39,836 bases of DNA, from the sequence record OZ035739.1; one strand, written 5' to 3'. The position numbers and the translations under genes were made by a program. Positions 3,031 through 30,551 of this stretch are shown here, piece by piece; the first letter of the stretch is position 1; every line of letters starts with the position of its first letter. The stretch is from Kayfunavirus AN24P4. The notes beneath the pieces are model-generated. The model worked only from the letters and a program-made list of their open reading frames with translations, ran no database searches and was not told the DNA's origin.

Positions 3031-3053
3031 ACTTAACTATCACTATAGGGAAG
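3031..3053 (+). promoter_or_regulatory. phage RNAP promoter (phiOR-like, downstream of gene 19)
   Basis: acttaactatcactataGGGaag; matches the 23-bp promoter repeated 11 times in the window; +1 G about 3048. Confidence 0.75.
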
Positions 3054-3392: not shown

Positions 3393-3628
3393 CGCAATCA
3401 TGATAACAATCAACGAAAGGAGGTAGGGATGGACGAGGAGTCTTATGGGTCGTTCTCTGACGAAGATTATCAGACGGAGTGGGAATACGCGCATTGAAGA
3501 CCTAAGGTCAGTTCATAGCTGACGCTACTCTACTGACCTTAGCTACTGTAGTCAAGGACTTTAGGTAACACCTTAAGAGAAGCTCACTTAGGGTCATCCT
3601 ACTTATTGGTCTATCCTAGTGTCGCCTG

Positions 3629-6254: not shown

Positions 6255-6277
6255 ACTTAACTATCACTATAGGACTC
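6255..6277 (+). promoter_or_regulatory. phage RNAP promoter directly upstream of the RNAP gene
   Basis: acttaactatcactataGGActc; +1 about 6272; followed by tandem gactttaagt / aagtgaaagac repeats up to the RNAP ATG. Confidence 0.7.
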
Positions 6278-6346: not shown

Positions 6347-9028
6347 ATGAGCGTCATCTCTATTGACAAACACGACTTCTCTGATGTGTCTAACGCCATT
6401 GAGCCGTTTAACCTGCTGGCTGACCACTACGGGCAAGACCTTGCAGTCAAACAGCTTCAGCTTGAGCACGAGGCATACACTGAAGGCGAGCGACGTTTCA
6501 TCAAAAACCTTGAGCGACAGACTGAGCGCGGGGAACTGGCAGACAATCAGGTAGCCCAGCCTTTGATGCAGACTCTGGTCCCTAAGATTGCGCAAGCCGT
6601 CAGGGAGTGGCATGAAGGTCCAGACGGGAAGCTGTCAACCTCTCGTCCGAGCGTATCGTTCACCATGTTAAGCACTGAAGAGAAGGCCGTCAAGGACCGC
6701 TCTCTTCGCATCTCCTGCGAGTCTGCTGCGGTTATCATACTGAAGGTCATCCTCTCCAAGCTGGTCAAGCCTGAAGGTATACCGATTACACCGATGGCCT
6801 CCGCGATAGGTCGCACACTTGAGGATGAAATCCGATTCGGTCGCATTCGTGACAAGGAGAAGGAGCACTTCAAGAAGGCGATAGCTGATAACCTGAACAA
6901 GAGAGCCGGGGCATCATACAAGAAAGCCTACATGCAAGCGGTCGAGACATCCATGCTGGAGCAAGGCCAACTAGAAGATGCGTGGGGAACTTGGAGTCCG
7001 ACCGAGGCTGTCCACGTTGGAATCAAGATGCTGGAGATTGTCATCCAGTCAACACAACTGGTCGAGCTTAAGCGTTACGGTGCTGGCAATGCAGCGGCTG
7101 ACGTTGAGATGGTCCACCTGTCAGACTTCTGGGTCAAGAAGATGGCACAACGCGGCTTCAGCCTTGCGGGTATCGCTCCAGTCTACCAACCTTGCGTAGT
7201 TCCACCTAAGCCGTGGACTGGTGTCGTAGGCGGGGGGTACTGGGCCAAAGGTCGCAGACCATTACCACTGATTCGCTTAGGGTCTAAGTCTGCGGTGGAA
7301 CGTTACGAAGACGTGTATATGCCTGAAGTCTATGACGCTGTTAACATCATCCAGAATACACCTTGGAAAGTGAACAAGAAGGTTCTGGACGTGGTGAACA
7401 TGGTCGAGAAGTTGAACAACACGCCTATTGATGACATCCCTCAGATGGAGCCACTGAAGCCTGAAGAATATGCGGGTGAGACTGAAGAGGAACTCAAGGC
7501 GTGGAAGAAAGCGGCTGCTGGTATCTATCGCCGCGAGAAGGCCAGACAGTCACGCAGGTTGTCGCTGAGCTTTATCGTTAACCAAGCGAACAAGTTCTCT
7601 CAGTTCAAGGCCATCTGGTTCCCGTATAACATGGACTGGCGCGGTCGCGTCTACGCTGTGCCGATGTTCAACCCTCAGGGTAACGACATGCAAAAGGGTC
7701 TCCTGACTCTGGCAGTCGGTAAGCCTATTGGTGCTGATGGTTTCAAATGGCTGAAGGTCCACGGGGCAAACTGTGCGGGTGTCGATAAAGTCACCTTCGA
7801 GGAGCGCATCAAGTGGGTGGAAGACAACCACGACAACATCATGGCTGCTGCTAAGGCACCGATGGATAGCATTGAGTGGTGGGGCAAGTTAGACTCTCCT
7901 TTCTGCTTCCTTGCGTTCTGCTTCGAGTATGCTGGCGTGATGCACCACGGATTGTCTTACTCCTGCTCGCTGCCGATAGCTTTCGATGGGTCCTGCTCTG
8001 GGATTCAGCACTTCAGCGCTATGCTTCGTGACCACATCGGTGGACATGCAGTAAACCTAACGCCATCCGGTAAGGTCCAAGACATCTACCGCATCGTGTC
8101 TGACCGCATTGAGGAGGAGCTTAAAGTCCTGCTGGTTAACGGCACGGATAACGAGATGGTAACTCACGAGGACAAGAAAACTGGTGAGATTACCGAGCGT
8201 CTCAAGCTGGGGACACGAGAGCTGGCCCGGCAGTGGCTGACTTACGGTATGTCACGCAAGGTTACTAAGCGCTCAGTCATGACTCTGGCCTATGGGTCGA
8301 AAGAGTACGGCTTTGCAGACCAAGTTTACGAGGACATCGTGATGCCAGCGATTGACTCAGGGTCTGGCGCTATGTTCACTGAACCAAGCCAAGCGTCTCG
8401 CTTCATGGCTAAGATGATTTGGGAAGCTGTGAGTGTGACCGTAGTTGCTGCAGTTGACGCGATGAAGTGGCTTCAAGGTGCTGCCAAGCTGCTGGCGGCT
8501 GAAGTGAAGGACAAGAAGACTGGAGAAATCCTGAAGCCTTGCCTTCCGGTACACTGGGTCACACCTGATGGGTTCCCGGTCTGGCAGGAATACCGCAAGA
8601 AGGATACCACTCGTCTGAACCTGATGTTCTTAGGGTCCTTCAACCTTCAGCCTACCGTCAACAAAGGCACGAAGAAGGAGTTGGATAAGCACAAGCAGGA
8701 GTCAGGAATTAGCCCGAACTTCGTCCACTCACAAGATGGTAGCCATCTCCGCAAGACTGTAGTCCACACTCACCGCAAGTATGGCGTGATGTCATTCGCA
8801 GTGATTCACGATAGCTTCGGGACCATCCCGGCTGACGCTGAGTATCTGTTCCGTGGTGTCCGTGAGACGATGGTCGAGACCTACCGCGATAACGATGTGC
8901 TGCTTGACTTCTACGAGCAGTTTGAATACCAACTTCATGAGAGCCAGCGCGACAAGTTGCCTGAGCTTCCGAAGAAAGGTAAACTGAATATTGAGGACAT
9001 TCTATCTTCAGACTTTGCATTCGCTTAA
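6347..9028 (+). CDS. single-subunit DNA-dependent RNA polymerase (T7 gp1-like)
   Basis: 893-aa ORF collinear with T7 RNAP over its whole length (FGRIRD, PWTG..GGGYWA, FPYNMDWRGRVYA, GIQHFSAMLRD, HDSFGT, C-terminal SDFAFA). Confidence 0.97.
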   Translation: MSVISIDKHDFSDVSNAIEPFNLLADHYGQDLAVKQLQLEHEAYTEGERRFIKNLERQTERGELADNQVAQPLMQTLVPKIAQAVREWHEGPDGKLSTSRPSVSFTMLSTEEKAVKDRSLRISCESAAVIILKVILSKLVKPEGIPITPMASAIGRTLEDEIRFGRIRDKEKEHFKKAIADNLNKRAGASYKKAYMQAVETSMLEQGQLEDAWGTWSPTEAVHVGIKMLEIVIQSTQLVELKRYGAGNAAADVEMVHLSDFWVKKMAQRGFSLAGIAPVYQPCVVPPKPWTGVVGGGYWAKGRRPLPLIRLGSKSAVERYEDVYMPEVYDAVNIIQNTPWKVNKKVLDVVNMVEKLNNTPIDDIPQMEPLKPEEYAGETEEELKAWKKAAAGIYRREKARQSRRLSLSFIVNQANKFSQFKAIWFPYNMDWRGRVYAVPMFNPQGNDMQKGLLTLAVGKPIGADGFKWLKVHGANCAGVDKVTFEERIKWVEDNHDNIMAAAKAPMDSIEWWGKLDSPFCFLAFCFEYAGVMHHGLSYSCSLPIAFDGSCSGIQHFSAMLRDHIGGHAVNLTPSGKVQDIYRIVSDRIEEELKVLLVNGTDNEMVTHEDKKTGEITERLKLGTRELARQWLTYGMSRKVTKRSVMTLAYGSKEYGFADQVYEDIVMPAIDSGSGAMFTEPSQASRFMAKMIWEAVSVTVVAAVDAMKWLQGAAKLLAAEVKDKKTGEILKPCLPVHWVTPDGFPVWQEYRKKDTTRLNLMFLGSFNLQPTVNKGTKKELDKHKQESGISPNFVHSQDGSHLRKTVVHTHRKYGVMSFAVIHDSFGTIPADAEYLFRGVRETMVETYRDNDVLLDFYEQFEYQLHESQRDKLPELPKKGKLNIEDILSSDFAFA

Positions 9029-11998: not shown

Positions 11999-12153
11999 CT
12001 GACGTAGAGAAGAAGTACATCGTGGAGCTTGAGGGTCGCATTCAGTCCTTCGAGGTTCCGGTGTACGCAAAGTCTCTTGAAGAGGCTACCCTGAAGTCCC
12101 AAGAGTATGAGGACGCTGGGTTTGTGGTCGGACGGATTCGCCCTGAGACCTAA
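11995..12153 (+). CDS. gp2-like host RNA polymerase inhibitor
   Basis: 52 aa; [14 protein letters not shown] and C-terminal GF.V.R.RP resemble T7 gp2. Confidence 0.6.
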
Positions 12154-12171
12154 ACTATCACTGTAGGACAG
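12149..12171 (+). promoter_or_regulatory. phage RNAP promoter variant (phi2.5-like)
   Basis: cctaaactatcactGtaGGAcag; one substitution at about -3 relative to the consensus. Confidence 0.55.
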
Positions 12172-14323: not shown

Positions 14324-14539
14324 ATGATTAAACTTATCGAATTTCTTGGTCGTCTGGTGGTGCGTGGTTATCGTCGTGCTGCGGTTATGGAACGAAAGGT
14401 AGCAGAGAAGACTGCCGATGGTGCGGCGGATGCTGCTGCTCTGGCTGACAAGCTGACCATCGCGTCACTGGAAGCTGGCATGAAGGCGCGTCAGGCTGAC
14501 ACCAAAGCCGACCAGTTGTCTCAGTTCTTCAAAGCCTAA
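14324..14539 (+). CDS. small conserved T7-group protein (71 aa), N-terminal hydrophobic helix and Ala/Lys-rich C-terminus
   Basis: RBS aaaggaga; MIKLIEFLGRLVV then coiled-coil-like AEKTADGAADAAALADKL, ends QLSQFFKA; resembles a small T7 gene-4-region protein but exact ortholog uncertain. Confidence 0.55.
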   Translation: MIKLIEFLGRLVVRGYRRAAVMERKVAEKTADGAADAAALADKLTIASLEAGMKARQADTKADQLSQFFKA

Positions 14540-14557
14540 ACTATCACCTTAGGGATG
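14535..14557 (+). promoter_or_regulatory. degenerate phage promoter-like sequence upstream of gene 4
   Basis: cctaaactatcacCTtaGGGatg; two substitutions at about -4/-3; probably weak. Confidence 0.35.
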
Positions 14558-16587: not shown

Positions 16588-18603
16588 ATGTTTGACCTTA
16601 AGAGTATCTGGGGTTCTGACATAGAGACCAACGGTCTCCTTGATACAGTCTCCCAGTTTCACTGTGGGGTCCTGATTAACGCCGAGTCGAATGAGACCCT
16701 TAAGTACGGGGTAGCTCCGATGGTCGGTATCGTCGGTGGCTTCAAAGAGTATGTTCATAAAGTGGAAGAGATTGCCGCATCGCCTGATGGTATGCTGGTA
16801 TTCCACAACGGTATCAACTATGACGTCCCGGCTATTGACAAGCTGAAGCGTCTGTACTTTGGGAAACGATTTAACTTCCCGAAACACAAGATGATTGATA
16901 CCTTGGTGCTGGGTCGCTTGATGTATCCAAACATTAAGTTCTCAGACATGGGCGCAGTGAAATCTGGTCGTCTGCCACCTAAGATGATGGGACGCCAGTC
17001 TCTTGAGGCTTGGGGCTATCGTCTCGGTGAGATGAAAGGTGAGTACAAACACGATTACGTTGCCAAGTGCAAGGCTGAAGGTATCGAATATAAGGCTGGG
17101 GACGAATGGTTGTTCCCGTCTCAGGAGATGCTGGACTATAACGTTCAAGACGTTGTGGTCACACTGGCGTTGTTCAAGAAGTTCCTGACTGACAAGTATT
17201 ACTTCCAGTCTGAACAGTTCGCTTTCGACCAGATTTATGCGTTGCGTCTGGAACATGACGCTGCTTGGACCTGTGCGAAGATGGAGCGTAACGGCTATCC
17301 GATGAACACCGAGATGGTTGAAGGCTTATATCGTGAACTCACCGTCAAACGTGCGGAGCTGCTGGACAAGCTGCGTTCGACTTTCGGCAGCTGGTATGCA
17401 CCAAAGGGAGGCAAGGAGTTCTTCAGGCACCCACGGACAGGTAAGGACCTTCCGAAGTATCCGCGAGTCGTGTATCCTAAGGTCGGGTCAGTATTCAAGA
17501 AGCCGAAGAACAAAGCTCAACGCTTAGGTCTGGAGCCTTGCGAGTTCGACTCACGAGACACGATGGAGGGAGCACCGTTCACACCTATCACTTACGTTGA
17601 GTTCAATCCGGGGAGCGGAGACCACTTAGCGAAAGTCTTGATGGAGCGTGGCTGGGAACCTGTGGACTTCACTGACACCGGGAAACCTGTAGTCGATGAC
17701 GAGACGTTAGAACACGTTAAGTTGCCAGACGAAGAGGCTCAGGCTTGCGTAGAGCTGGTCCGTGAGTATTTGGTAGTCCAGAAGCGCATCGGTCAGGCTG
17801 CTGAAGGTAAGAACGCATGGTTGAAACTTGTAGGCCCAGACGGACGTATGCACGGTTCAATCAACCCTTGTGGTGCAGTAACAGGACGTGCGACCCATAG
17901 CTCACCAAACATGGCTCAGGTTCCTGCTAACGGTGCTCCGTATGGTGAGACTTGCCGTGGTGCTTTCGGTGCAGCGTGGAACAAGAAGGACGGTGAGCCA
18001 GACCCTTGGATTCAAGTAGGCGTGGATGCTTCAGGTCTTGAGCTTCGTTGTCTGGGGAACCGAGCGGCTCCGTTTGATGGTGGAGACTATGCGAAGACTG
18101 TGGTCGAAGGGGACATCCACTGGGCCAACGCAGTAAACGCTGGGTTAGCACCTAACGTCCCACGCGATAAGTCGAACCACGACCATGAGGCTTTCCGCAA
18201 CAACGCCAAGACGTTCATCTATGCGTTCCTGTATGGCGCAGGGGCCGCTAAGATTGGACTTATAGTCGGCGGTGGTAAGAAGGAAGGTTCAGCTCTCATG
18301 AAGAAATTCATTGAGGGTACACCAGCCATCAAGGACCTCAGGGAAGCTGTGAGTAATACGTTAATATCAGACTCTAAGTGGGTGGACGGTGAGAACATCG
18401 TCAAGTGGAAACGCCGCTGGCTGAAAGGTCTAGATGGTAGACGTATCCACATCCGGTCGCCACACTCAGCACTTAACGCTCTACTTCAGGGTGATGGTGC
18501 GGTAGTCTGTAAGCACTGGATTGTCGAGACCGAGCGTATGCTGGAAGCCGAAGGATATGTCCACGGCTGGGATGGAGACTTTGCGTACATGGCATGGGTG
18601 CAT
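16588..18603 (+). CDS. DNA polymerase (T7 gp5-like), exon 1
   Basis: Start at ATG 16588 after ggagg; collinear with T7 gp5 (SDIE.N.LL, FHNG..YDVPA, KSGRLP, NP.GAVTGRATH, DASGLELRC, KTFIYAFLYGAG, DGDFAYMAWVH) but the frame ends at TAA directly after ...AWVH, 51 codons short of the T7 C-terminus. Confidence 0.9.
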
Positions 18604-20790: not shown

Positions 20791-20842
20791 GTCTAACAGA
20801 TAGTCATATCCTATCAATCCAATAGTCATCCATAGGTGAAAC

Positions 20843-20865
20843 ACTAAACTATCACTATAGGGACT
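20843..20865 (+). promoter_or_regulatory. phage RNAP promoter (phi6.5-like)
   Basis: cactaaactatcactataGGGact; +1 about 20860. Confidence 0.75.
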
Positions 20866-20926
20866 TTAGGACCTAAGATATGACTATAAGATAGACTTTA
20901 GTCTTAACTTAAAGAGGAGATTCAAG

Positions 20927-21199
20927 ATGGCGATTAATGCTATTGAAAACGTTGTTAAGCAGTTACAGGAAGAAAGACTCGATGTCCCGAACATCTCCCA
21001 GTCTGCCATCCAGTTCATGCACGTATTGTTTAACGCAAGCTACGCTGAGAAGATGGGAGCTATCAGTCTCCTCAAGCAGCAAGGCTACAGCGATGCGTTC
21101 ATTGCCGGATTCATCAAGGGTCTCCAGTATTGTTCTGACACTCTCGACTCTGCGATTGCTATGCGTCGTGAGCTGAAAGATACCGTTCAGTTCGATTAA
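20927..21199 (+). CDS. gp6.5-like protein
   Basis: 90-aa ORF with RBS agaggag downstream of the phi6.5-like promoter; assignment mainly by position. Confidence 0.6.
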   Translation: MAINAIENVVKQLQEERLDVPNISQSAIQFMHVLFNASYAEKMGAISLLKQQGYSDAFIAGFIKGLQYCSDTLDSAIAMRRELKDTVQFD

Positions 21200-24675: not shown

Positions 24676-24698
24676 ACTAAACTATCACTATAGGGAGA
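24676..24698 (+). promoter_or_regulatory. phage RNAP promoter (phi10-like), closest to full consensus
   Basis: actaaactatcactataGGGAGAcc; +1 about 24693; drives the major capsid gene. Confidence 0.8.
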
Positions 24699-24800
24699 CC
24701 AAGAGACAGATTCAAGGTTTCCCTATTACTTCAGTCCATACGGATTGGGCGTACAGTAAGTAATAAACTTTATCTTTCAATTTAATAGGAGAATTATCAT

Positions 24801-25850
24801 ATGGCAAACGTTCCGGGTCAGAAAATTGGTACAGACCAAGGTAAAGGCAAATCCAGTTCCGACGCTCTGGCGTTGTTCCTGAAGGTATTTGCTGGTGAAG
24901 TCCTGACCGCATTCACTCGCCGCTCTGTAACTGCTGACAAGCATATTGTCCGTACCATTCAGAACGGTAAGTCTGCTCAGTTCCCGGTCATGGGTCGCAC
25001 ATCTGGTGTGTATCTGGCTCCTGGTGAGCGACTGTCCGATAAGCGTAAAGGTATCAAACATACCGAGAAAGTGATTACCATTGACGGTCTGCTGACTGCC
25101 GATGTGATGATTTTCGACATTGAAGACGCGATGAACCACTATGACGTGGCTGGCGAGTACTCCAACCAGTTGGGTGAGGCTCTGGCTATCGCTGCTGATG
25201 GTGCGGTTCTGGCTGAAATGGCTCTCCTGTGCAACCTCCCGGCTGCATCCAACGAGAACATTGCCGGTCTGGGCACTGCGTCAGTACTTGAAGTTGGTAC
25301 TAAAACCGACCTGAACACTCCGGCTAAGCTGGGCGAAGCAATCATCGGTCAACTGACCATTGCTCGTGCGAAGCTGACCTCCAACTACGTTCCTGCTGGC
25401 GACCGTTACTTCTACACCACGCCGGACAACTACTCTGCAATCCTCGCGGCTCTGATGCCGAACGCTGCTAACTATGCTGCGCTGATTGACCCAGAGACTG
25501 GTAACATCCGTAACGTGATGGGCTTCGTTGTTGTTGAAGTCCCGCATCTGGTACAGGGTGGCGCTGGTGAGACTCGTGGTGACGATGGCATCTCTATCGC
25601 TTCCGGTCAGAAACACGCATTCCCGGCAACTGCTACTGGCGACGTTAAAGTTGCTATGAACAACGTTGTGGGTCTGTTCTCTCACCGTTCTGCTGTGGGT
25701 ACTGTGAAGCTGCGTGACTTGGCGCTGGAACGTGACCGCGACGTCGATGCTCAGGGCGACCTGATTGTTGGTAAGTATGCTATGGGTCACGGTGGTCTGC
25801 GTCCTGAAGCAGCGGGCGCACTGGTTTTCACAGCAGCGTCAGCGGGTTAA
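24801..25850 (+). CDS. major capsid protein 10A (T7 gp10A-like)
   Basis: 349 aa; near-collinear with T7 gp10A (LALFLKVF.GEVLTAF.R.SVT, SAQFPV.GRT, KHTEKVITIDGLLTADV.I.DIEDAMNHYDV, NVMGF.VVEVPHL, GTVKLRDLALER, KYAMGHGGLRPEAAGA). Confidence 0.97.
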   Translation: MANVPGQKIGTDQGKGKSSSDALALFLKVFAGEVLTAFTRRSVTADKHIVRTIQNGKSAQFPVMGRTSGVYLAPGERLSDKRKGIKHTEKVITIDGLLTADVMIFDIEDAMNHYDVAGEYSNQLGEALAIAADGAVLAEMALLCNLPAASNENIAGLGTASVLEVGTKTDLNTPAKLGEAIIGQLTIARAKLTSNYVPAGDRYFYTTPDNYSAILAALMPNAANYAALIDPETGNIRNVMGFVVVEVPHLVQGGAGETRGDDGISIASGQKHAFPATATGDVKVAMNNVVGLFSHRSAVGTVKLRDLALERDRDVDAQGDLIVGKYAMGHGGLRPEAAGALVFTAASAG

Positions 25851-26116: not shown

Positions 26117-26157
26117 AAACCCCTTGGGTGCCTTCGGGTGCTTGAGGGGTTTTTTGC
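26117..26157 (+). terminator. Tphi-like transcription terminator after the capsid gene
   Basis: aaaccccttgggtgccttcgggtgcttgaggggttttttg closely resembles T7 Tphi (aaccccttgggg...cttgaggggttttttg): GC-rich hairpin plus T6 run. Confidence 0.75.
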
Positions 26158-26271
26158 TTAAGGAGGGACTATGGTCCTTATTTACACAGGGTTAGCACTA
26201 TTCGTCTTATTCTGGGCGTACCTGCTGTCCAGCTCACCGTCTAGCGCCTATGACCGTTAAGGAGTAAACCT

Positions 26272-26838
26272 ATGGCTCAATACATTCCACTGAATGCTAA
26301 CGATGACTTAGACGCCATCAACGATATGTTAGCTGCTATCGGTGAACCAGCAGTCCTACAGCTTGACGAGGGGAACGCTGACGTATCGAACGCTCAACGT
26401 ATCCTGCATCGTGTCAATCGTCAGGTCCAAGCTAAAGGATGGAACTTTAACATTAATGAAGCTGCTGTCCTGACACCTGATGTCCAAGACAACAGGATTC
26501 GATTCTTGCCGTCATACCTTCGTGTAATGACCGCTGGGGCCACCAGCTACTACAGCAACATGGGTGGATACCTGTACGACCTGTCCACTCAGTCCACCAC
26601 TTTCACCGACCCTATCATGGTAGAGCTTGTGGAGATGAAGCCATTCTCCGAGATGCCTGTGGTCTTCAGGGACTACATCGTCACTAAAGCTAGCCGTGAG
26701 TTCAACGCTAAGTTCTTCGGTAGCCCAGAGTCTGAACTGTACCTTCGTGAGCAGGAAGCAGAACTCTATCAGCAGGTCATGGAATACGAGATGGACACTG
26801 GTCGCTACAACATGATGTCCGACATCGGGAGGGACTAA
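26272..26838 (+). CDS. tail tubular protein A (T7 gp11-like)
   Basis: 188 aa; IN.MLAAIGEP.V..L.EGNADV.NA.RIL..VNRQ.QAKGWNFNI.E, GGY.YD...QS, YEMD.G.YNM resemble T7 gp11. Confidence 0.93.
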   Translation: MAQYIPLNANDDLDAINDMLAAIGEPAVLQLDEGNADVSNAQRILHRVNRQVQAKGWNFNINEAAVLTPDVQDNRIRFLPSYLRVMTAGATSYYSNMGGYLYDLSTQSTTFTDPIMVELVEMKPFSEMPVVFRDYIVTKASREFNAKFFGSPESELYLREQEAELYQQVMEYEMDTGRYNMMSDIGRD

Positions 26839-27074: not shown

Positions 27075-29432
27075 ATGCCACTAATTACTCAATCAATCAA
27101 GAACCTTAAAGGTGGCATTAGCCAACAGCCTGACATCCTGAGGTTCTCGGACCAAGGCGAGGAACAGGTAAACTGCTGGTCATCAGAGAGTGATGGCCTA
27201 CAGAAGCGTCCACCTACAGTCTTCAAGCGACGTCTTAACATCGACGTTGGGAGCAACCCTAAGTTCCACCTGATTAACCGTGATGAGCAGGAGCAGTATT
27301 ACATCGTGTTCAACGGGTCCAACATTCAGGTAGTTGACTTGAGCGGTAATCAATACTCAGTTTCCGGTGAGGTAGACTACGTTAAGTCGTCCAACCCGCG
27401 AGATGACATCCGTGTCGTTACTGTTGCAGACTATACGTTCGTCGTTAACCGTAAGGTTGTCGTTAAAGGTGGAAGCGATAAGTCACACTCTGGTTATAAT
27501 CGTAAAGCACGCGCTTTAATTAACCTGCGCGGGGGACAGTATGGTCGCACCCTTAAGGTAGGAATCAACGGTGGAGTTAAGGTCTCGCATAAGCTGCCAG
27601 CAGGTAATGATGCCGAGAATGACCCACCTAAGGTGGACGCTCAAGCCATTGGTGCAGCTCTGAGAGACCTTCTTGTTGCTGCCTATCCTACCTTCACGTT
27701 CGACCTTGGGTCTGGCTTCCTGCTAATCACAGCTCCTTCAGGGACCGACATTAACTCAGTGGAGACTGAGGATGGATACGCTAACCAGCTAATCAGCCCA
27801 GTCCTCGACACGGTGCAAACAATCTCTAAGTTGCCTCTTGCGGCTCCAAATGGGTACATCATTAAGATTCAAGGTGAGACCAACAGTAGCGCCGATGAAT
27901 ATTACGTGATGTACGACTCCAACACTAAGACGTGGAAGGAGACAGTAGAGCCGGGAGTGGTCACTGGGTTCGATAACACCACAATGCCACATGCTCTGGT
28001 GAGACAATCTGACGGCTCCTTTGAGTTCAAGACTCTGGACTGGTCCAAGCGTGGTGCTGGTAATGATGACACAAACCCTATGCCTAGCTTCGTGGCATCC
28101 ACGATTAACGATGTGTTCTTCTACAGGAACAGGCTGGGGTTCTTGTCAGGTGAGAACGTAATCATGAGCCGTTCAGCCAGCTACTTTGCGTTCTTCCCTA
28201 AGAGTGTGGCGACACTGAGTGATGATGACCCTATTGATGTAGCTGTAAGTCACCCTCGAATCTCAATCCTTAAGTATGCCGTTCCGTTTAGCGAGCAGCT
28301 ACTACTTTGGTCTGATGAGGTTCAGTTCGTGATGACAAGCTCTGGGGTGCTTACCTCGAAGTCTATCCAGCTTGATGTAGGCTCAGAGTTTGCCTTAGGA
28401 GATAATGCCAGACCGTTCGCTGTAGGACGCTCAGTCTTCTTCTCAGCGCCTCGTGGGTCATTCACCAGCATTAAGCGATACTTCGCTGTAGCAGATGTGT
28501 CTGACGTGAAGGATGCCGATGATACCACTGGTCACGTACTGTCCTATATCCCTAACGGGGTGTTTGACATTCAAGGTACAGGGACTGAGAACTACATCTG
28601 CGTCAACTCTACAGGTGCATACAACCGAATCTACATCTATAAGTTCTTGTTTAAGGACGGCGTACAGCTTCAAGCCTCTTGGTCGCACTGGGAGTTCCCT
28701 AAAGCTGATAAGATTCTGGCGTCTGCTTCGATTGGCTCTACCATGTTCATTGTTCGTCAGCACCAAGGCGGCGTGGACCTTGAGCACCTTAAGTTTATCA
28801 AGGAGGCAACCGACTTTCCGTTAGAGCCATATAGACTCCACGTTGACTCCAAGGTGTCTATGGTAATACCAATTGGCTCATACAACGTTGACACCTATAA
28901 GACTACGGTTGACATTGGTTCTGCTTATGGTGGAAACGCTCCGTCTCCCGGTCGGTACTATCTTATTGACAGTCAGGGTGCCTACGTGGACCTTGGTGAA
29001 TTGACAGACATCTCAACTGTGGCTATACTAAATGGCGATTGGTCAGGACGTACAGTGTTCATAGGACGGTCTTATCTGATGTCCTACAAGTTCTCACGGT
29101 TCCTGATTAAGATTGAAGACGATAGCGGCACTCAGTCTGAAGACACTGGTCGTCTACAACTTCGTCGGGCTTGGGTCAACTACAAGGACACTGGCGCTCT
29201 TAGACTCATTGTCAGAAACGGTGAGCGGGAGTTCGTGAATACCTTTAATGGGTACACCCTTGGTCAGCAGACCATTGGGACTACCAACATTGGTGACGGT
29301 CAGTATCGCTTCGCTATGAATGGTAACGCATTAACCACGAGTCTAACCTTAGAGTCAGATTATCCTACCCCAGTGTCCATCGTTGGCTGTGGCTGGGAGG
29401 CGTCATACGCTAAGAAAGCTCGTTCCGTCTAA
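27075..29432 (+). CDS. tail tubular protein B (T7 gp12-like)
   Basis: 785 aa; N-terminus M.LI.QSIKNLKGGISQQPDILR..DQG...VN.WSSE..GLQKRPP as in T7 gp12. Confidence 0.95.
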   Translation: MPLITQSIKNLKGGISQQPDILRFSDQGEEQVNCWSSESDGLQKRPPTVFKRRLNIDVGSNPKFHLINRDEQEQYYIVFNGSNIQVVDLSGNQYSVSGEVDYVKSSNPRDDIRVVTVADYTFVVNRKVVVKGGSDKSHSGYNRKARALINLRGGQYGRTLKVGINGGVKVSHKLPAGNDAENDPPKVDAQAIGAALRDLLVAAYPTFTFDLGSGFLLITAPSGTDINSVETEDGYANQLISPVLDTVQTISKLPLAAPNGYIIKIQGETNSSADEYYVMYDSNTKTWKETVEPGVVTGFDNTTMPHALVRQSDGSFEFKTLDWSKRGAGNDDTNPMPSFVASTINDVFFYRNRLGFLSGENVIMSRSASYFAFFPKSVATLSDDDPIDVAVSHPRISILKYAVPFSEQLLLWSDEVQFVMTSSGVLTSKSIQLDVGSEFALGDNARPFAVGRSVFFSAPRGSFTSIKRYFAVADVSDVKDADDTTGHVLSYIPNGVFDIQGTGTENYICVNSTGAYNRIYIYKFLFKDGVQLQASWSHWEFPKADKILASASIGSTMFIVRQHQGGVDLEHLKFIKEATDFPLEPYRLHVDSKVSMVIPIGSYNVDTYKTTVDIGSAYGGNAPSPGRYYLIDSQGAYVDLGELTDISTVAILNGDWSGRTVFIGRSYLMSYKFSRFLIKIEDDSGTQSEDTGRLQLRRAWVNYKDTGALRLIVRNGEREFVNTFNGYTLGQQTIGTTNIGDGQYRFAMNGNALTTSLTLESDYPTPVSIVGCGWEASYAKKARSV

Positions 29433-29438
29433 CTTATT

Positions 29439-29491
29439 GAAGGGCCTATAGATTTACCTTAACTATCACTATAGGGACTATAGGCCCTTAA
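29439..29491 (+). promoter_or_regulatory. inverted repeat enclosing the phi13-like promoter (possible RNase III site R13 or read-through attenuator)
   Basis: agggcctatag (29441-29451) and ctataggccct (29478-29488) are exact reverse complements with the promoter in the 26-nt loop. Confidence 0.5.
29457..29479 (+). promoter_or_regulatory. phage RNAP promoter (phi13-like)
   Basis: ccttaactatcactataGGGact; +1 about 29474. Confidence 0.75.
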
Positions 29492-29508
29492 GGTTATAAG
29501 GAGACTTT

Positions 29509-29979
29509 ATGTATATTCGCAAGGCTACGGAACCAGATGTCCACTACTTTCTGTGGCATCTTTCAGCAGATGATGTTAATGAATGCAAAGCAAACTACGG
29601 GTCAACCGTGGGTCTCTCAGAGAGACTGCTTAAGCACCTATCTCCATCATCTGTGGTTTTAACGAACGGTGTAGGTGAAGTGTTTGCCTATGGTGGAAAC
29701 CAAGGGGATAACGTATGGTTCTTGACTTCTGGTCTGGTCTACAAGCTGGGGCCTAAAGAGAAGCGAGAGTTCATAAAGTGTATCTCTGAGTACAGGGACT
29801 TAATGTTAGACCAATACGGGACCATCTGGAACTACGTGTGGTCAGGCAATAAGTCTCACATTAAATTCTTGAAGTTGCTTGGCGCTAAATTCCATGATGA
29901 TTGGACTGTAAGCCCGGTAACTGGTGAGCGTTTTCAACTATTCACTATCTCTAAGGAGGACGTATGTGCGAGCCAGTAA
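29509..29979 (+). CDS. internal virion protein A position (gp13-like)
   Basis: 156-aa ORF with RBS taaggaga directly downstream of the phi13-like promoter and upstream of gp14; assignment by position. Confidence 0.6.
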   Translation: MYIRKATEPDVHYFLWHLSADDVNECKANYGSTVGLSERLLKHLSPSSVVLTNGVGEVFAYGGNQGDNVWFLTSGLVYKLGPKEKREFIKCISEYRDLMLDQYGTIWNYVWSGNKSHIKFLKLLGAKFHDDWTVSPVTGERFQLFTISKEDVCASQ

Positions 29980-30551
29980 GTATCGGCATGGGTATTATGG
30001 CTGTAGCTGGTGCCGCTATGTCCGCTTCTAGTCAGGCCAAAGCTGAGGGTGCTGCTATCGACGCTCAGAACCGTCAGGCTCAGGAGATGGTTAAGCAGAT
30101 GAACTACTCTGACGCCAACCTGAAGATGCAGGAGCGAGACCTGAAGGAGCAGCAGATGGCTGAACTGACAGAGACCACGTTAAACGGTATCCGCAATCAG
30201 GGTATGGTCCGAGCTGCGGTAGCTGAGTCCGGTCTGGAAGGTAACTCTATGGACAGGATTGAACGTCAAGTCGCGGGAGACACAGTCAAGGAGAGAGCCG
30301 GGATTACCGAAAGCTACAACCGTGACTATGCGGCTATCTTCGGGAACCGTATCGCCAACATTGAGAACACCAAGTCTGCTATCCGTGGTCAAGGTAAAAT
30401 CATCAAGACCAGCCCACTAGCTCATGCACTTAATGTTGCTAACGCCGGGATGCAAGGGTACGCTGCTGGCAAGTCAATATCTGGGGCATCAAGCTCCGGT
30501 GGTGCCGCACCGATTAGTGCTGCTAAAGGCACACCTACAGGTCATAGCTAA
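29964..30551 (+). CDS. internal virion protein B (T7 gp14-like)
   Basis: 195 aa; N-terminal MC...hydrophobic AGAAMSA segment, Gln/Ala-rich coiled-coil region and C-terminal A.KGT.TG resemble T7 gp14. Confidence 0.85.
   Translation: MCEPVSIGMGIMAVAGAAMSASSQAKAEGAAIDAQNRQAQEMVKQMNYSDANLKMQERDLKEQQMAELTETTLNGIRNQGMVRAAVAESGLEGNSMDRIERQVAGDTVKERAGITESYNRDYAAIFGNRIANIENTKSAIRGQGKIIKTSPLAHALNVANAGMQGYAAGKSISGASSSGGAAPISAAKGTPTGHS

Follow-up and report, generated by a model that had tools for sequence, protein, structure and literature searches.

The phi13-like promoter between genes 12 and 13 of Kayfunavirus AN24P4 (sequence record OZ035739.1; the whole stretch of 39,836 nucleotides that was analysed is called the window below) sits inside an RNA hairpin that is, in our assessment, probably the Kayfunavirus (K1F-group) counterpart of R13, the RNase III processing site around phi13 in the T7 group. 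Judged by comparison of sequences, the reading of this hairpin as a putative processing site on read-through RNA is supported by positional homology and by covariation across the whole family. The architecture of a promoter within a hairpin is already known as R13 (and, in its geometry, as R6.5) since the genome annotations of T7 and T3, and the site opens no new biological question.

The phi13-like promoter and the transcripts that cross it

An exact search with CACTATAG returned nine sites on the + strand that share a motif of about 19 nt with the consensus TAAACTATCACTATAGGGA. When up to three mismatches to the 19-nt motif were allowed, these nine sites and two degenerate ones were obtained, where zero are expected by chance, and none was found on the - strand. 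The degenerate promoter-like sites, at 12151-12169 (TAAACTATCACTGTAGGAC) and 14537-14555 (TAAACTATCACCTTAGGGA), are two to three mismatches off the consensus and may be weak or decayed promoters. The promoter studied here, which belongs to a phage single-subunit RNA polymerase, extends over 29457-29479 on the + strand (-17 to +6), with the G at 29474 as +1, and the records of CR44b, T7 and T3 likewise carry a promoter at this position. Upstream of it lies gene 12 (27075-29432, + strand, 785 aa), encoding the tail nozzle or tail tubular protein B (Pfam PF25675, Phage_nozzle, E=0), with its TAA stop codon at 29430-29432, and downstream gene 13 (29509-29979, + strand, 156 aa), encoding the internal virion/scaffold protein gp13 (PF11090, Phage_T7_Gp13, E=1.6e-41), with the Shine-Dalgarno sequence AAGGAG at 29498-29503. 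The spacer between the two genes, 29433-29508, is 76 nt long. Since the flanking open reading frames are gp12 and gp13, followed according to Pfam by gp14, the name phi13-like is right.

The RNAs that reach the spacer from upstream can be deduced from the regulatory sites before it. Gene 11 (26272-26838, PF17212) is separated from the capsid region by a recognisable Tphi-like terminator with a T-run, placed at 26131-26148 or, as CCTTCGGGTGCTTGAGGG and then GTTTTTTGCT, at 26131-26158, and the next phage promoter after this terminator is phi13; the motif search, with up to three mismatches, gave no promoter-like sites between 24696 and 29459. With this terminator upstream and no promoter between 24696 and 29459, every gene 11-12 message is therefore read-through RNA that carries both arms of the hairpin described below.

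Further features of the window concern other promoters and the genome as a whole. At 24693-24735 the transcript of a phi10-like promoter opens with a 5' stem-loop (GGGAGACC...GGUUUCCCUA), which resembles the well-known leader hairpin of T7 phi10. The promoter at 6257-6275 (+1 at 6272) is located 75 nt upstream of the gene for the phage RNA polymerase (6347-9028, 893 aa, PF00940/PF14700), an arrangement that could allow the enzyme to transcribe the gene that encodes it; gene 1 of T7 is not known to be preceded by a phage promoter. Compared with the K1F record DQ111067 the window is circularly permuted, the spacer region occupying 25289-25379 in that record but 29425-29515 in the window, a shift of about 4136, and since the terminase gene is found at 1167-2936, the physical genome ends fall inside the window.

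A 12-bp inverted repeat encloses the promoter

A repeat search in the window identified two arms of 12 nt on either side of the promoter, AAGGGCCTATAG at 29440-29451 and CTATAGGCCCTT at 29478-29489 (both given on the + strand), which are 100% complementary and separated by 26 nt. An earlier, sequence-only reading of this DNA had described an inverted repeat at the same place with arms of 11 bp (29441-29451 and 29478-29488), which is right but one A-T pair short. It had also put the promoter from -17 to -1, as well as +1, in the loop, and this agrees with the coordinates: with +1 at 29474, the 26-nt loop (29452-29477, + strand) holds the promoter from -17 to -1 together with +1 to +4, while the 5' arm corresponds to -34 to -23 and the 3' arm to +5 to +16. 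RNA begun at the promoter consequently has the 3' arm only, as had likewise been claimed, the 5' arm being placed upstream of the start. The beginning of the 3' arm is a near-exact tandem copy of the promoter from -4 to +4 (ACTATAGGG / ACTATAGGC).

It had further been proposed that read-through RNA of gene 12 contains both arms and could fold, and structure prediction bears this out. The RNA 29425-29510 has a minimum free energy (MFE) of -27.8 kcal/mol (z = -3.6), which was equalled by none of 200 shuffles, and on read-through RNA ten of the 12 stem pairs have probabilities of about 1.0, the two outermost reaching 0.63 and 0.90. The helix consists of 12 continuous bp below the 26-nt loop, and is extended by a lower helix that is short and rich in A and U. 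In the consensus structure of the genus, the predicted strands of this lower helix are UAACU at 29430-29434, which takes in the gene 12 stop codon, and GGUUA at 29492-29496 (both + strand), so that the consensus helix comes to about 17 bp in total (12 plus 5 bp), interrupted by an internal loop. The MFE fold of the single sequence differs from the genus consensus in that it forms the lower helix from 29433-29437 and 29496-29500, and contains 21 pairs that span the promoter. The sense strand of the window spacer folds at -27.6 kcal/mol compared to -23.2 kcal/mol for the antisense strand, a weak asymmetry, the arms being perfect Watson-Crick. We also considered a bistable arrangement in which the 5' arm pairs with CUAUAGGGACU of the promoter itself (9 of 11 pairs), and rejected it given an energy of -7.7 kcal/mol, compared to -20.4 kcal/mol for the main helix, and an ensemble probability of zero. 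A scan of 29350-29580 against Rfam gave a single hit, to a miRNA model and at chance level (13.2 bits, where the gathering score is 52; E=3.8).

How surprising is such a repeat? There is one perfect inverted repeat of at least 12 bp with a loop of at most 60 nt in the window, where dinucleotide shuffles contain 0.13 on average; a 12-bp repeat is by itself mildly improbable genome-wide, and is suggestive but not decisive. That the repeat is non-random follows from its placement astride the promoter in a spacer of 76 nt, combined with the fold z of -3.6 and the conservation of its arms. Perfect repeats of at least 11 bp number three in the window, where 0.5 are expected per shuffle. The 11-bp perfect inverted repeat TAACTATAGGT / ACCTATAGTTA at 2946-2994, inside which an AGCTGC...GCAGCT hairpin is nested, starts 10 nt past the stop of the terminase large-subunit gene (2936) and lies about 50 nt before a promoter with +1 at 3048; its arm resembles that promoter minus TCAC. 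A further perfect repeat of 11 bp, CTAAGGTCAGT / ACTGACCTTAG, occupies 3502-3542 with a loop of 19 nt.

The arms are invariant in K1F-type phages

Within the T7 group (Studiervirinae), the window belongs to the K1F-like phages. Over 28900-30100 it shares 100% identity with Escherichia phage vB_EcoP-22664UKE3-2 and 90-99% with many Kayfunavirus genomes. The 91-nt stretch 29425-29515 occurs in K1F itself at 100% identity and has matches in 220 phage records, of which 108 reach 99% or more. Within 23 related loci, the 9-nt core of the 5' arm (29443-29451) is 99.5% identical and that of the 3' arm 100% (23/23), whereas identity at third codon positions of genes 12 and 13 (neighbouring 300 nt) is 68% and 77%, with minima of 40-46%. 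For 13 Kayfunavirus spacers, RNAalifold returned a 9-bp upper helix, GGCCUAUAG/CUAUAGGCC, and a 5-bp lower helix, UAACU/(A/G)GUUA, in which columns 4-8 pair with columns 66-70 and one pair varies between U-A and U·G.

The same RNAalifold analysis found no compensatory changes among the 13 spacers, only five one-sided G·U changes. As there is no variation in the arms, the genus by itself is uninformative as to whether RNA pairing or some other constraint maintains them, and the conservation of the 3' arm could in part come from constraints on the initially transcribed sequence. Three Kayfunavirus-type loci (L018, L023 and L025; at about 1430-1475 of the locus) have an altered promoter specificity region, for example AAACTATTACACCCTCACTATAGGGA, and unchanged arms, which implies an apparent replacement of the polymerase-promoter specificity that left the hairpin as it was.

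Pairing is maintained across the T7 group

We extended the comparison with two IMG/VR scans with gp13, which yielded 24 close loci and about 38 more distant ones; the final set consisted of 67 gene 12-13 spacers (66 fetched loci and the window), representing 47 distinct sequences. A helix was counted as spanning the promoter if its 5' strand lay upstream of -17 and its 3' strand at or after -10. By this definition, the MFE fold contains a promoter-spanning helix in 46 of the 47 distinct spacers. The helices of the T7/T3/K11-type spacers include one to four G·U pairs each, and nearly all spacers of the T7 group fold worse in antisense than in sense. Taken over the family, the G·U pairs and the poorer antisense folding point to an RNA structure of the sense strand rather than a DNA element.

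The paired sequences themselves vary widely. In the T7/T3/K11 types a 5' arm UCUCCC... meets a 3' partner ...GGGAGA, while the corresponding pairs are GUUGGGUUAGUAGUG and CACUAUUAGCCCAAC in lineage L058, ACCCUAUG and CAUAGGGU in L051, where the partner lies downstream of the start, GUCCCCUAUGG and CUAUAGGGGAC in L045, and GAGUGUCUC and GAGACACUC in L086. As a test that is neutral with respect to structure, we calculated RNAduplex energies for the upstream region of every lineage against the start region of every lineage. For nine of the 12 lineages the best partner of the upstream arm is the lineage's own start region, and own pairs (the diagonal) average -22.8 kcal/mol compared to -14.6 kcal/mol off the diagonal; the observed diagonal was reached in 0 of 20,000 permutations (p<5e-5). 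RNAalifold on the T7/T3/K11-type set scored compensatory changes at four of the ten consensus pairs. The pairing is thus kept across the T7 group while the paired sequences diverge.

A second enclosed promoter in the window

The other promoters of the window served as an internal control, in which the complementarity between -70 to -18 and -10 to +40 was compared with that of shuffled sequences for each of the nine strong promoters. Complementarity beyond the shuffles was seen at only two of the nine, namely those with +1 at 29474 (z -3.8) and +1 at 20860 (z -7.1). The latter is enclosed by perfect arms of 11 bp, ATAGTCATATC at 20801-20811 and GATATGACTAT at 20878-20888, with a spacer of 66 nt, and the resulting hairpin (20801-20888) is situated between the gene 6 exonuclease and the gp6.5 homologue (20927-21199, PF10911). 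The two enclosed promoters thus occupy the phi6.5 and phi13 positions, which are also where T3 annotates RNase III stem-loops around promoters, and this match with R6.5 and R13 of T3 is independent of the observation from which the analysis started.

A model for processing at phi13

If the hairpin is indeed an R13 counterpart, the following course of events is suggested. Read-through transcripts of genes 11-12 are predicted to fold into the 12-bp helix, which host RNase III would cut, so that genes 11-12 and genes 13-17 end up on separate messages. The RNA on the upstream side of the cut would keep a 3'-terminal hairpin that could shield it from 3' exonucleases, while RNA started at phi13, which begins with GGGACUAUAGGCCC... 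and is devoid of the 5' arm, would escape cutting. Both the cut by RNase III and the stabilisation of the upstream message are inferred here from position and family. Cellular RNase III substrates are generally constrained in length, to less than about 20 bp, with an ideal of 22 bp, and cuts of a single strand by the enzyme leave stabilising 3' hairpins (PMC3867540). As modelled, the genus-consensus helix of about 17 bp would be in the range of such cellular substrates. T7 grows without RNase III (PMC6938266), and any effect of the site is therefore likely to be subtle. In evolutionary terms, the window site could be an R13 of the T7 type whose 3' partner has shifted downstream through a small duplication. 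A literature search for Kayfunavirus combined with RNase III found no paper, and a broader search returned nothing specific.

Alternative explanations

The main live alternative, which we nevertheless consider unlikely, is a functional RNA hairpin that RNase III leaves uncut, and which, on read-through RNA, blocks 3'-5' exonucleases or insulates the folding of the gene 12 and gene 13 messages from one another. In its favour stand the strong prediction and the conservation of the RNA helix, and with 12 continuous bp and a 26-nt loop the hairpin is below the ideal 22-bp substrate of RNase III. On the other hand, T3 and phiYeO3-12 annotate an RNase III site at this position, R13 is among the listed RNase cleavage sites of T7 (PMC6938266), and in the middle of a polycistronic message a 3'-protective hairpin has nothing to protect unless there is an endonucleolytic cut nearby. 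One could also speculate, with little expectation of being right, that the Kayfunavirus hairpin is an RNase III-independent device, working through stability or insulation or as a DNA repeat that tunes opening, which marks read-through RNA as distinct from phi13-initiated RNA; if this were true, the downstream duplicate of the start would have evolved to free the promoter from doubling as a helix arm. An action of the repeat in the DNA itself had been part of the sequence-only reading, in the form of an effect on promoter melting, and this part gained no support from the analysis. That a cruciform, or melting helped or hindered by the repeat, tunes the activity of phi13 seems to us very unlikely: the arms of the genus are perfect Watson-Crick and invariant, which speaks in its favour, but the T7-group helices hold G·U pairs, whose counterparts in DNA or antisense are C·A mismatches, the sense RNA forms a more stable fold than the antisense RNA, and the arms are unchanged where the promoter specificity region has been swapped. 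Considering general cruciform energetics, a spacer of 26 nt would moreover make extrusion costly. The contact region of T7-type polymerases excludes the 5' arm (-34 to -23), which also counts against an effect at the level of DNA.

For the folded read-through RNA, processing and attenuation had both been put forward, and the two have fared differently. Processing gains from the R13 annotations of T3 and phiYeO3-12 and from the pairing in the T7 group. An attenuator, terminator or pause site for the phage RNA polymerase, limiting read-through from gene 12 into gene 13, would make use of the stable hairpin on read-through RNA, but the 3' arm is followed by UUAAGGUUAUAAGG, with no U-run, and no terminator-like site is present in 29200-29700; the homologous hairpins of T7 and T3 also lack a U-run, whereas the Tphi-like terminator of the window has its T-run, so that attenuation strikes us as highly improbable. 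To translational control of gene 13, with a lower structure that masks the ribosome-binding site until processing or initiation at phi13 frees it, we give hardly any credence. The MFE fold does pair AUAAG and AGAC, beside the Shine-Dalgarno sequence, with upstream CUUAU and GUCU; the accessibility of the Shine-Dalgarno sequence in the partition function is, however, 0.56 in read-through RNA and 0.57 in RNA started at phi13, and the lower helix of the consensus lies upstream of that sequence and excludes it. Given equal accessibility in both RNA forms, masking of the Shine-Dalgarno sequence was rejected. The hairpin is almost certainly not a functionless by-product that arose by chance from the palindromic CTATAG/GGCC content of the promoter and a local duplication. 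Its 3' arm does begin as a near tandem copy of part of the promoter, and a 12-bp perfect inverted repeat turns up in roughly one in eight shuffles; the arms are, however, conserved well beyond the flanking synonymous positions (99.5-100% compared to 68-77%), and every T7-group lineage examined has an analogous pairing of unrelated sequences.

Consequences for annotation

The records of K1F and CR44b contain no stem-loop at this site; K1F has no promoter annotated there either, and CR44b has a 'predicted promoter'. Among 60 of the 220 matching phage records, none carries a stem-loop feature under the match, and a few annotate the promoter. Labels could be transferred from T3 and phiYeO3-12, namely 'putative RNase III site R13' to the present site and 'R6.5' to 20801-20888. 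Under the R13 reading, the T7 group would follow a design rule in which a processing hairpin encloses a late promoter, giving read-through and promoter-initiated messages different ends, and the K1F group indicates that the helix can persist while its 3' arm moves off the promoter. For the engineering of K1F-type phages and the reuse of their promoters, it is of practical relevance that a promoter transferred together with its flanks brings along half or the whole of a putative processing site.

Comparison with R13 and R6.5 of T7, T3 and phiYeO3-12

In the T3 RefSeq record NC_003298, a stem_loop at 25443-25480, 'RNase III recognition site R13', is annotated around 'T3 promoter phi13' at 25457-25479. 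Like the window site, it is found in the gene 12-13 spacer, with its 5' arm a few nt past the gene 12 stop and upstream of the promoter, and because of this position of the 5' arm the whole site is, in T3 as in the window, present on read-through RNA only. The annotated T3 segment folds as GUCUCCCUGCGGUG...CUCACUAAAGGGAGAC. Its 3' arm is the promoter's own -7 to +7 (CUCACUAAAGGGAGAC) and its loop measures 8 nt, whereas in the window the 3' arm is a separate segment, +5 to +16, and the 26-nt loop, unlike that of T3 R13, encloses almost the entire promoter; the 5' arms also differ in sequence (GUCUCCCUGCGGUG in T3, AAGGGCCUAUAG in the window). The record of Yersinia phage phiYeO3-12 (AJ251805) lists a 'putative RNase III site R13' at 26209-26246 over phi13 (26223-26245), between genes 12 and 13. 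That site was assigned by comparison, as is the one in the window, and is of the T3 type in geometry and sequence.

For T7, the annotation tables contain no RNase III site at phi13, only the promoter. Dunn and Studier, in 1983, are said to have placed the T7 R13 cleavage at coordinate 27281. In the T7 spacer we predict a helix, UUCUCCCUGUGGUGG / UCACUAUAGGGAGAA, that spans phi13 (promoter annotated at 27274; z = -4.4). It shares position and logic with the window site, and differs from it in that the T7 promoter itself forms the 3' arm, with three G·U pairs. The difference holds for the T7/T3/K11 types in general, where the promoter's own -9 to +7 is the 3' arm, while the window uses a separate downstream segment; in sequence, the window arms AAGGGCCUAUAG/CUAUAGGCCCUU stand against (U)UCUCCCUGUGGUG paired with CACUAUAGGGAGA(A) in these types. 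Compared with R13 of T7 and T3, the arms are unalignable beyond the core CCUAUAG, the complement of CUAUAGG in the promoter. Downstream of phi13 in T7, at 27279-27299 (480-500 of locus L001), CAATACGACTACGGGAGGG resembles a degenerate partial copy of the promoter, and T7 ACUACGGGAG is a second possible partner for the upstream arm CUCCCUGUGGU, which parallels the use of the downstream duplicate as 3' arm in the K1F group.

The geometry of the window site has its closest parallel at the other enclosed T3 promoter discussed here. R6.5 of T3 is a stem_loop at 17135-17206 around phi6.5 (17160-17182) and, like the window phi13 site, it has arms that flank the promoter and hold it towards the apex of a long hairpin; unlike the window site, it is located at the gene 6.3/6.5 junction and its helix is longer and interrupted. 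We therefore describe the window site as the positional and structural counterpart of R13, for which common descent is plausible.
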